A stretch of 64,000 nucleotides of DNA, taken from IMG/VR virus record IMGVR_UViG_3300034092_002689; one strand, given 5' to 3'. The stretch is from an uncultured virus (IMG/VR IMGVR_UViG_3300034092_002689) (lineage: Duplodnaviria > Heunggongvirae > Uroviricota > Caudoviricetes). The position numbers and the translations under genes are program-made. Shown one piece after another: positions 47,310 to 57,397 of the stretch; positions within the stretch are counted from its first letter, which is position 1, and every line of letters begins with the position of its first letter. The notes beneath the pieces were generated by a model. That model was not told the DNA's origin, did no database searches, and saw nothing but the letters and a program-made list of their open reading frames with translations.

Positions 47310-47828
47310 TTACTTTAAATACTTTGTAGTGTAACTGTTATTAGCAAATACAATATTGTATATATTGTTTGTATCTGGATACGATGTGTCAATAAACTCT
47401 TGCATTTCTTTCTCTGACTTAAATAGACCTACAATATTTCTATTTTTACTACCGTCTTTTAAATACACCGTATGATAAACATCGTTACCTAATACATGTA
47501 CTCCTGTACCTACTTTGTACTTTACTAAATGGATAGGGTAATATTGTTTATACCCTTTATCTTTGTACTGATTAGTATGCCAAGATACCTTTACCTTACC
47601 CTCTAATAGATGCTTTATATCTTTCTCCAATATCTCTAATTCCATACTATTTATATCCATTTTAAACTGTTTATACTTAGGCGTTTCTAGATCATGACTT
47701 ATTCTACTAATAGCGGTCAGTAAATGTTTCGTATAACCCACCATAAATCTCTTACTCTCATGGCATACAAAAGCATACACACAATGCTGAGGCATACTAA
47801 ATAACTCCACTATTCTCATCTTACCCAT
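47310..47828 (-). CDS. Hypothetical protein, GIY-YIG-like N-terminus (172 aa)
   Basis: CVYAF...FMVGYT..L..AISR resembles a degenerate GIY-YIG; GGAG RBS. Confidence 0.5.
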   Translation of the reverse strand: MGKMRIVELFSMPQHCVYAFVCHESKRFMVGYTKHLLTAISRISHDLETPKYKQFKMDINSMELEILEKDIKHLLEGKVKVSWHTNQYKDKGYKQYYPIHLVKYKVGTGVHVLGNDVYHTVYLKDGSKNRNIVGLFKSEKEMQEFIDTSYPDTNNIYNIVFANNSYTTKYLK

Positions 47829-48542: not shown

Positions 48543-48579
48543 AAAGCCGTAGACTCGAAAGGGTCTACGGTTTTCGTTT
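48543..48579 (+). terminator. Terminator hairpin, repeat unit B
   Basis: GCCGTAGACTC-GAAA-GGGTCTACGGT followed by TTTCGTTT. Confidence 0.8.
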
Positions 48580-48714
48580 ATCTACCACTCAACTAAAAGC
48601 ATTGATCAACCAAAAAGGTTGCATTCGCAATCGGGGGTCAACTAGATCCATAGAATTAGTAGAACCACCATATTTGTTTAATGACTCTACTAAAACAGTG
48701 TACAAAAATAATGC

Positions 48715-48743
48715 TTGACATAAGTCAAAAAATATGCTATCCT
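48715..48743 (+). promoter_or_regulatory. sigma70 promoter TTGACA-17-TATCCT
   Basis: Consensus -35, extended -10; a second promoter TTGACT-17-TATTAT at 48810-48838. Confidence 0.75.
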
Positions 48744-49590: not shown

Positions 49591-49628
49591 AAAGCCGTTG
49601 ATGCCACTGGTGTCAACGGTTTTCTTTT
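49591..49628 (+). terminator. Terminator hairpin, repeat unit C
   Basis: GCCGTTGATGCC-ACT-GGTGTCAACGGT followed by TTTCTTTT. Confidence 0.8.
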
Positions 49629-49881
49629 ATCCACTACTCAACTAATCTAGTTGACTCAGAGAGATCGGGGTCAACTATTTTCGTTTAATCAGTCCGGGAT
49701 CCAAATACAACTAAATCAGTGTACAAAATTATTTGAAATAATCCTTGACATAAAATGCCATTCTATGGTATCCTGTAATTTGATGCATTTTTTACCTACT
49801 AAAATAATCGATGTAACATCAAAAAAATATATTTCAAAATCAAAAAACTATGTTATACTCATGAGCGAAAGGTAGGTAATT

Positions 49882-50544
49882 ATGGCAAGCTTATTAACTC
49901 AAAACAGCAAGATCAAGGGAAGCGGTAGCGCAAGGGTTATCGTTTACAATTTTGGTATTCCTGCATTCATGTCTGAAACGGGATTTAAAACATGTCCTAT
50001 GGCAGGCATTTGCGCCGGTGCATGCTATGCTCGATCAGGTTTTTACATAATGTATAAAACAGTCAGGAATGCTTTAGAATGGAGATTAAAGCGCACTCAA
50101 TCAAAACAGTTTCATTGGGAAATGAGAATGGAATTGAACAAAGCTTTAAAGCGGCATAAAGGAAAACAATTGATAATTCGCATTCACGATAGCGGAGATT
50201 TTTACTCGCTCGAGTACTATAGGAAATGGGAAGCCATTATGCTGGAATTCCCTGATATCAGGTTTTATGCTTACACTAAAATGGTTAAGATGTTCAAGGA
50301 ACTTGATGGAACTCTTCCTGCTAATTTTACTCTGATATATTCTTTCGGCGGTAAACAAGATAAATTGATTGATCGTTCTAAAGATCGTCATTCCTTTGTT
50401 TTCGCTGATAGCATCGAACTCAAGCGTAAAAAATACATCGATACATCAAAGAATGATTTAAATGCTATTGGAAAAAATCACCGTATTGGGTTAGTCTATC
50501 ATCATCCTAAAAGCTTTGAGAATACAGGATGGTCTAAACTATAA
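49882..50544 (+). CDS. GP88-family (radical-SAM-like) protein (220 aa)
   Basis: TCPMAGICAGACYA (Cx5Cx3C), RIHDSGDFYS, FYAYTK. Confidence 0.85.
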   Translation: MASLLTQNSKIKGSGSARVIVYNFGIPAFMSETGFKTCPMAGICAGACYARSGFYIMYKTVRNALEWRLKRTQSKQFHWEMRMELNKALKRHKGKQLIIRIHDSGDFYSLEYYRKWEAIMLEFPDIRFYAYTKMVKMFKELDGTLPANFTLIYSFGGKQDKLIDRSKDRHSFVFADSIELKRKKYIDTSKNDLNAIGKNHRIGLVYHHPKSFENTGWSKL

Positions 50545-50589: not shown

Positions 50590-50626
50590 AACGCCGTAGA
50601 CTCTCATGGGTCTACGGTTTTCGTTG
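50590..50626 (+). terminator. Terminator hairpin, repeat unit D
   Basis: GCCGTAGACTC-TCAT-GGGTCTACGGT followed by TTTCGTT. Confidence 0.8.
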
Positions 50627-51124
50627 CTTATACGGTCAACTAAAAGCGTTTAACAACGAATCTCATTGACTAATCGAATCGGGGGTCAATTAATTTCATT
50701 GCGTTAGTCAACGGTACAAATTTACTAAAATAACTATTGACAAAGTCAAAATTGTGTGGTATTCTGGAATTAGTATCTTTTTTTCCTACACCTTATTCAT
50801 TTAACATTCTATCTTATCCATTTACGCTTTAAAATGCCATTTAAGCGCATTTTTTTAGCAATTAATACCTAACCTAGTAGCATTTTCTAAGCGTTTAAAC
50901 GGGATTTTAGAGCGTTTTAAAGCTTATACATTAAAATTGTTTTAGCAATTAAGTCAGATAAACAAAAATCGTTGTAATATTAATGCTTTACAAGCGTTTG
51001 ATTTTGTGATAAAGTGGGAAGTTACGCTTGATTTTGACTGGATTTATGGGGTGAGGAGAGCTTCCCTCCCAATCCCCCCTCTAAACCCCATCACTCTACC
51101 CATAAAAAAAACATAAAAAAAAAT

Positions 51125-51153
51125 TTGACTTATCCCAAAACCCTTGATAACAT
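51125..51153 (+). promoter_or_regulatory. sigma70 promoter TTGACT-17-TAACAT with A-rich UP element
   Basis: Upstream A tracts; extended -10 TG. Confidence 0.65.
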
Positions 51154-51159
51154 ATTTTC

Positions 51160-51412
51160 AAGATAGGGAATGAGACTGAAAACCTCCTCCCTCCTGACAA
51201 GGTAAAGGCTTCTTGAAACATCCACCGAAAGGGTCGCTGACTCCTCGATGGGTAAGGCAAGAAAACCTTCTAAGTAAGTGCATGAATCCTACCCGACAAG
51301 TAGCGTCAAGAACGCAACGGACGGATGACCGCTTTGATGCCTTGTCTGTCTCTGATTGAGTGAAGCGTGACGAAAAGTGAACAACCCACGGACAACGAAA
51401 TCAGTAGAGAGA
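51160..51412 (+). ncRNA. Candidate structured ncRNA or long leader
   Basis: No ORF; multiple nested and crossing helices (see findings). Confidence 0.5.
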
Positions 51413-51528
51413 AATAAATGAAAGTAAGGTTCATTGATTTAACAAGCGTATTAGTTGAGTAACTTAGTCAATTAGTACGCTTGATTACTTCAATAAGCAA
51501 TGAAGTATGAAAGAGAAAGGGTAACAAT

Positions 51529-51834
51529 ATGACACAAAGAGAAATAGCTGAGACTATCAATCAACAATTAAACTGGGCAGGTTTACCTGTTCGCTGGTCT
51601 TGGGGCATTCATGCTCTGAAGGCATTGCCTCCAAAGGATGGCATGAGAGGCGGTCTGCAATTCGCTGTGAATGGAGCGAAGCACAAAGGCCATGTCCGAG
51701 TGTGGCTTACGGGTGGCGATGATTACACCATCGAATTAGGCCACCTGAGAGGATCTTTTAATGTAGCATATTCGGTGGATGGTATTTATTGTGACGAACT
51801 TGCTACGACTATCGATGGAATGGTGGAAACATGA
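51529..51834 (+). CDS. Conserved phage hypothetical protein (101 aa)
   Basis: GLQFAVNGAKHKGHVRVWLTGGDDYTIE; GAAAGGG RBS. Confidence 0.75.
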   Translation: MTQREIAETINQQLNWAGLPVRWSWGIHALKALPPKDGMRGGLQFAVNGAKHKGHVRVWLTGGDDYTIELGHLRGSFNVAYSVDGIYCDELATTIDGMVET

Positions 51835-57321: not shown

Positions 57322-57397
57322 GCGCCATTAGTTCATCGGTTAGAATGCGGGTCTTATAAACCTGAGGCGCATGGTTCAATTCCATGATGGCGCACCA
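57322..57397 (+). tRNA. tRNA-Ile(UAU)
   Basis: GCGCCAT/ATGGCGC acceptor stem, A discriminator plus CCA; anticodon arm CGGGT-CTTATAA-ACCTG; T loop GGTTCAATTCC. Confidence 0.88.

Follow-up and report, generated by a model that had tools for sequence, protein, structure and literature searches.

Structured RNAs in Phages and Bacterial Chromosomes

Only a handful of small self-cleaving ribozyme classes have been described, and what they do in phages is still mostly unclear (PMC6765202). For type III hammerheads, the reference used here is Perreault et al. (2011; PMC3088659), the available part of which reports hammerheads that flank phage genes, with one at the 5′ end of the early transcript of a halovirus, and natural hammerheads in which the C3–G8 pair is switched to U3–A8. 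According to the accessible portion of PMC10861870, the raiA motif RNA comprises helices P1 to P6 or more together with two pseudoknots, and is found in the chromosomes of Bacillota and Actinomycetota.

The RNA motif described here lies near the start of the early region of an uncultured tailed phage and is carried in diverged form by three other phages (G005, G037, and G022). Comparison of the four sequences establishes the conservation of the motif, its helices P1, P2, and P3b, a covarying lone pair, and its position. In Rfam 15, no family reached the gathering score for this motif, among them raiA, ROOL, GOLLD, tmRNA, RNase P, twister, pistol, hatchet, the riboswitches, and the hammerheads. 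The best E-values, from cmscan searches with E up to 10, were at least 2.4 for the window core and at least 0.52 for the G037 copy, all far below threshold, in agreement with the initial annotation, which had not recognized tmRNA, RNase P, 6S RNA, or a known riboswitch in it. No description of the motif was found in the literature searched, in which the coverage of subscription papers was limited. There is also a survey of candidate viral RNAs, which we take to be that of Fremin et al. (2023). In the accessible part of its record (PMC10690425), the supplementary tables hold no match to the motif, and its 8495 IMG/VR alignments may contain it.

The Phage Genome and the Early Promoter

The window, that is, the whole stretch of DNA analyzed (64,000 nucleotides), corresponds to bases 1–64000, and thus to most of the genome, of a phage of about 80.8 kb (80,835 bases, 37% GC), the two ends of whose sequence overlap by 127 bases. 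The phage encodes a terminase, a P22-like portal, and three tRNAs; its closest isolated relative is a Silvanigrella phage (32% for the capsid, 28% for the terminase), from which one might guess that its host belongs to the Silvanigrella group. A tRNA gene at 57322–57397, called Ile by ARAGORN, has the anticodon TAT, which is unusual in bacteria. Below about 47.8 kb, the structural genes are encoded on the minus strand; above that point, the plus strand carries small genes and those for replication. In the relative G007, a stretch of roughly 150 bases is directly repeated at a C-rich tract where the end and start of the record join (L183/L184); similar C-tracts are found at the early-region boundary in several relatives (about 47970 in the window) and perhaps mark the physical genome end.

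The tract of interest sits between a GP88 gene (49882–50544) and an ORF of 101 aa (51529–51834, plus strand), which is the first of a long early operon and has no Pfam match. It lies downstream of the last of several promoter cassettes, which terminate in strong terminators, and is followed by about 30 kb of genes on the plus strand. A cassette repeated three times at intervals of about 1 kb (48543–48743, 49591–49774, and 50593–50765) consists of a terminator hairpin, the word GGGGTCAA, and a TTGACA promoter.

The initial annotation had proposed a pseudoknotted RNA of about 250 nt in an ORF-free, GC-rich tract behind its own sigma70 promoter. Every word that it listed is present (TTGACT, TAACAT, AGGGA/TCCCT, GACAAGG/CCTTGTC, TTCTTGA/TCAAGAA, CATCC/GGATG, and the second domain at 51349–51410); the closing helix and the position of the promoter were confirmed, and a conserved structured RNA behind that promoter was supported, but the crossing helices, the pseudoknot topology, and the 250-nt unit were not. 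The tract is indeed richer in GC (49% in 51200–51399 versus 27–40% just upstream), and no ORF of at least 60 aa overlaps it, although three of 41–54 aa do. The predicted sigma70-type promoter (51106–51153, plus strand) comprises an A-tract, the −35 element TTGACT (51125–51130), a 17-nt spacer, and the −10 element TAACAT (51148–51153). It matches the consensus at 9 of 12 positions, and such sites are no commoner than in shuffles (11 found versus 10.1 expected). In its favor, each of the homologues is preceded by a promoter-like site, close to where the early region begins: an A-tract plus TTGACT in G005 and G037, and a weaker TTGCAT site in G022.

Homologues of the Motif

Homologues were sought among capsid relatives (35 loci). 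BLAST across 36 records gave matches in three, of which one, G005, was genuine. A pattern scan added G037: 3 of its 47 matches were genuine (the phage itself, G005, and G037), two of them already known. Two other pattern scans of the collection yielded 2 genuine matches of 16 and 3 of 26, the latter again being the phage itself, G005, and G037, and a loose first pattern revealed no homologue among the at least 120 matches listed. In metagenomes, 90 matches included 2 to the same phage and 18 to rRNA-like sequences that have the AGUA/GAA word in common, presumably large-subunit rRNA; the rest were unrelated. None of the 8 matches in GTDB was genuine. The patterns used for the collection, the metagenomes, and GTDB all required a long P3 arm and were therefore blind to short copies of the G022 type. 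Since these scans preceded the recognition of that short form, the family probably has more than four members.

The covariance model R1, built from the window, G005, and G037, matched 2 of 37 records, and its default filters missed G022. Without filters, G022 became the top match (15.1 bits, E = 0.4), not significant by itself; this copy shows the whole junction, and only 26 of 20,000 anchored shuffles reach its P1+P2 pairing. The copies of G005 and G037 are divergent from the homologue of the window gene at 47310–47828, near the start of the early region, and that of G022 is located in the same early region. On the capsid tree (22 rows, G037 not included), the carriers split into two clades.

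The motif is absent from several complete relatives. Isolated phages gave no meaningful blastn match to it, and all model matches in the Silvanigrella phage had E-values of at least 1.5. A weak model match in G033 was rejected as it falls in coding sequence. G007 contains a 13-bit look-alike of the 3′ half of the motif, and unrelated sites share the word CCGCTYHGAYG as well (8 matches versus 7 in the control). Mimicry of rRNA was considered and discarded: two additional rRNA-like words of the window recur in neither G005 nor G037, and the model has no match on four rRNA-like loci.

Fold of the Motif

Taken alone, the window sequence has an unremarkable fold (MFE z = −1.48). When the four carriers are compared, a three-way junction of P1, P2, and P3 is supported by compensating changes, the covariation for which the initial annotation had advised looking. 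The order is the same in all four: P1, U-A, P2, YUAARYAM, GUG-C, the P3 arm, C-CGC, UYY-GAYG, and the 3′ strand of P1. A small invariant junction is thus kept in diverged carriers while the arms vary.

P1 (51196–51346; 51196–51202 paired with 51340–51346) is the GACAAGG/CCTTGTC closing helix already seen in the window; it has 7, 9, 6, and 3 contiguous pairs (the last followed by a bulge) in the four carriers, with two-sided changes. The G-U-A at the P1/P2 junction (51202–51204) is invariant in all four. P2 (51205–51269) is a variable hairpin of 56–97 nt with the base AAGG/CCTT, whose pairs differ among carriers yet stay paired; the P1+P2 pairing observed is reached in 5, 1, 6, and 26 of 20,000 anchored shuffles, respectively. 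In the 8-nt junction YUAARYAM (51270–51277), the lone pair 51270–51274 is C..G in the window and G022, and U..A in G005 and G037.

The P3 arm (51278–51332), of 21–49 nt depending on the carrier, stands on a GUG/CGC stem whose invariance leaves it predicted, without covariation. In P3b (51286–51295 with 51318–51326), 6 of 8 pairs are changed on both sides, a count drawn from the three long-form sequences only; this covariation is reached by 3 of 500 shuffles, and slid controls gave 0–2. The apical part (51299–51315) consists of AGUA (51299–51302), GCGUCAA (51303–51309), and GAACGC (51310–51315). In the three long forms, AGUA and GAA flank the loop GCGUCA, in what we take to be a bulged-G (loop E) arrangement. 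P3 of G022 is a 7-bp hairpin with the loop GCGUA and no AGUA/GAA part.

The last junction strand, UYY-GAYG-C (51333–51340), is the predicted partner of the loop GCGU(C) (51303–51307) in a pseudoknot. This pairing is plausible: its uninterrupted length is 8 pairs in the window, 7 in G005, 5 in G037, and 4 in G022, and among these a single G-C to G-U substitution is seen, but none that alters both sides. Its formation might preclude the invariant GUG/CGC stem, since the entire arm would then have to be bridged by a linker of 3 bases.

The conserved core amounts to about 150 nt rather than the 250 nt proposed, and the elements around it are kept less strictly. The 5′ hairpin AGGGA/TCCCT (51165–51192) is well predicted in the window (pair probability 0.77–0.97), but its sequence is not conserved, with two different hairpins at this place in G005 and none in G037. 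Similarly, the hairpin after P1 (51349–51410), the second domain of the initial annotation, folds well (z = −3.2); G005 and G037 have a hairpin at the same position but of different sequence. The inner pairing GGGTA/TACCC has a probability of 0.00 in the window and was not confirmed by the homologues. Further downstream, a near-perfect hairpin of about 16 bp (51443–51483) precedes the first ORF and is a predicted RNase III-type site; all four carriers have long near-perfect hairpins there, unrelated in sequence. No terminator was found behind the motif in the window, which leads to the prediction that it forms the 5′ portion of the early transcript, not a self-contained ncRNA gene. In G022 (L374 940–1560), the GC-rich leader of about 600 nt contains additional structured domains 3′ of the motif and, ahead of the first ORF, a long hairpin.

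Hammerheads and Other RNAs in Sister Phages

Canonical type II hammerheads are present in this early leader in four lineages of sister phages: G007 (L184 704–769), G018 (L188 968–1059), G024, also G034 (L191 16035–16104 and 16431–16492), and G023 (L416 3172–3230). All have a canonical core; in the one of G023, stem II opens with a U facing a U. At the Rfam gathering score, those of L184, L188, and L191 were missed. G023 is the sister of the carrier G022 on the capsid tree. No canonical hammerhead was found in the leaders of the carriers, nor elsewhere in the window genome, in G037, or in the G022 stretches examined. Loose matches in G005 (two) and G031 (one) were dropped as AT-rich and outside the leader, and one in the window genome vanished under stricter descriptors. 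The carriers of the motif and of hammerheads (4 and 4 of 12 lineages) show zero overlap, for which p = 0.14 by chance; G012, G020, and G031 have neither. By eye, the sister hammerheads lie about 10–30 nt before the first start codon; their exact position is that of the long hairpin in the carriers, not that of the motif.

In G004, which belongs to the clade of the window phage, the same slot contains an ORF-free tract of about 430 nt with a promoter and a U-tailed terminator (L385 7097–7545). Three words of the motif are found there in order, without the G-U-A junction (463 of 200,000 shuffles, with a pattern chosen post hoc), and model R1 gives no match. This tract has many crossing helices and no Rfam match, and is possibly a larger relative of the motif. 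If so, the loop pairing would gain a compensating change, and the reading as a free RNA would gain ground. What occupies this one early-leader slot varies with the lineage: the motif, a canonical hammerhead, or a terminated RNA of 430 nt. In the leader of G007 (L372 550–586 and 727–737), an 11-base word of the 3′ junction of the motif occurs twice, one copy being inside a closing helix following U-A and the other being the hammerhead cleavage site. G024 (L373 660–1230) has several hundred ORF-free, structured-looking bases upstream of its hammerhead, with no Rfam match.

Possible Functions

The initial annotation had suggested a ribozyme, a decoy, or a complex leader, and the first is narrowly favored. 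We propose, with a probability of roughly 0.35, that the motif is a self-cleaving RNA of hammerhead-like layout and rebuilt core, which would trim the 5′ end of the early transcript. The host polymerase would transcribe it early in infection, and a cut after G-U-A (51204) would drop a 5′ piece of 13–70 nt and leave an early mRNA with a 5′-hydroxyl and a hairpin cap, likely to resist 5′-end-dependent decay. The resistance of mRNA with such ends is established chemistry. The GCGU/GAYGC pairing could serve to stabilize the active fold or, conversely, to keep it from forming. The hammerheads of the sister leaders provide a context that favors self-cleavage, weakly; on the other hand, the predicted pseudoknot would tie up the GA that matches G12–A13, which would count against it. 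In a tentative extension of this proposal, which we hold to be less probable than not, the motif would represent a previously undescribed class of self-cleaving ribozymes, with hammerhead-like connectivity and its own catalytic core, which this phage family uses instead of canonical hammerheads to process its first transcript.

A serious alternative, which we hold to be possible though doubtful, is a non-catalytic early RNA, freed by RNase III at the long downstream hairpin, which would then work in trans, titrating a host defense or RNA-binding factor as its decoy or sponge. The near-perfect hairpin before the first ORF in all four carriers is consistent with it, as are the leaders of several hundred bases in G007 and G024, upstream of hammerheads that would release them, and the G004 tract with its own promoter and terminator. 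Against it, the ends of the RNA are not conserved, and the G004 tract, a putative homologue, is not matched by model R1.

It is rather unlikely that the motif is a cis-acting leader, providing put-type antitermination or a 5′-end shield for full transcription of the 30-kb early operon. Its place behind the last promoter cassette, and the strong terminators of the cassettes upstream, would suit such a role, but there is little to read through: plus-strand terminator-like sites number only 2 in 51.4–64 kb and 4 in 63.9–80.8 kb, where the total of 10 is at the shuffle level (11.1). Moreover, several complete relatives manage without the motif, and its architecture differs from that of put, which consists of two short hairpins.

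There is a small chance that the locus is a DNA-level signal (an entry stop or a protein site) or a decayed hammerhead without current function. The motif is near the predicted genome end, and 51329–51379, the sole match in the genome, fits a type III hammerhead given two core insertions, under a descriptor tailored after the fact. Neither G005 nor G037 has an equivalent of this hammerhead with two insertions. The junction stays the same in carriers from two capsid clades, and the helices tolerate G-C to G-U changes, which fits an RNA. Finally, the original fold, a 250-nt RNA with two long-range crossing helices, is very improbable: the 7-bp (TTCTTGA/TCAAGAA) and 5-bp (CATCC/GGATG) complementarities exist in the window, but their pairing probability is 0.00, TTCTTG pairs instead with the local CAAGAA at 51258–51263 (probability 0.80–0.99), and the best upstream partners of these segments in G005 and G037 reach only 3–5 nt.

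Comparison With raiA RNA and Hammerhead Ribozymes

Insofar as the accessible part of PMC10861870 describes it, the raiA motif RNA resembles the present motif: it is an orphan RNA of about 200 nt that has pseudoknots, numerous conserved bases in its junctions, and an E-loop domain that is not always present. It differs in having more helices and in being chromosomal, and the motif does not match it in cmscan at E up to 10.

The likeness to type III hammerheads was drawn post hoc, by visual comparison of four sequences. Both have three stems around one junction, with an open stem III and the same order, which in the motif reads stem, G-U-A, hairpin, Y-U-A-A-R, G-C-opened hairpin, GA, stem. P1 would correspond to stem III, P2 to stem I, and P3 to stem II, and G-U-A, in all four carriers, resembles the NUH cleavage triplet between stems III and I. 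Also shared are a G-C pair that opens stem II, a GA preceding stem III, and the setting in a phage early leader. The Y..R pair, which switches from C-G to U-A as C3–G8 does to U3–A8, may correspond to that pair, but it spans 3 nt instead of 4.

The core itself is different. In place of CUGAnGA the motif has YUAARYAM, one base longer and with A for G5; in place of GAAA and the A15.1–U16.1 pair it has UYY-GAYG, with Y for A14 and G for A15.1. Its junctions, of 8 and 7 nt, hold five bases more than those of the hammerhead, and the conserved complement of its loop is part of the core strand instead of stem I. Lacking G5, A14, and A15.1 and having five additional bases, the motif is not, by its sequence, a hammerhead, and the known hammerhead chemistry cannot be assumed for it. 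If it does not cleave, this phage family is still a comparative system; if it does, a junction with hammerhead connectivity and most core bases swapped would show how far the fold can be rewired.
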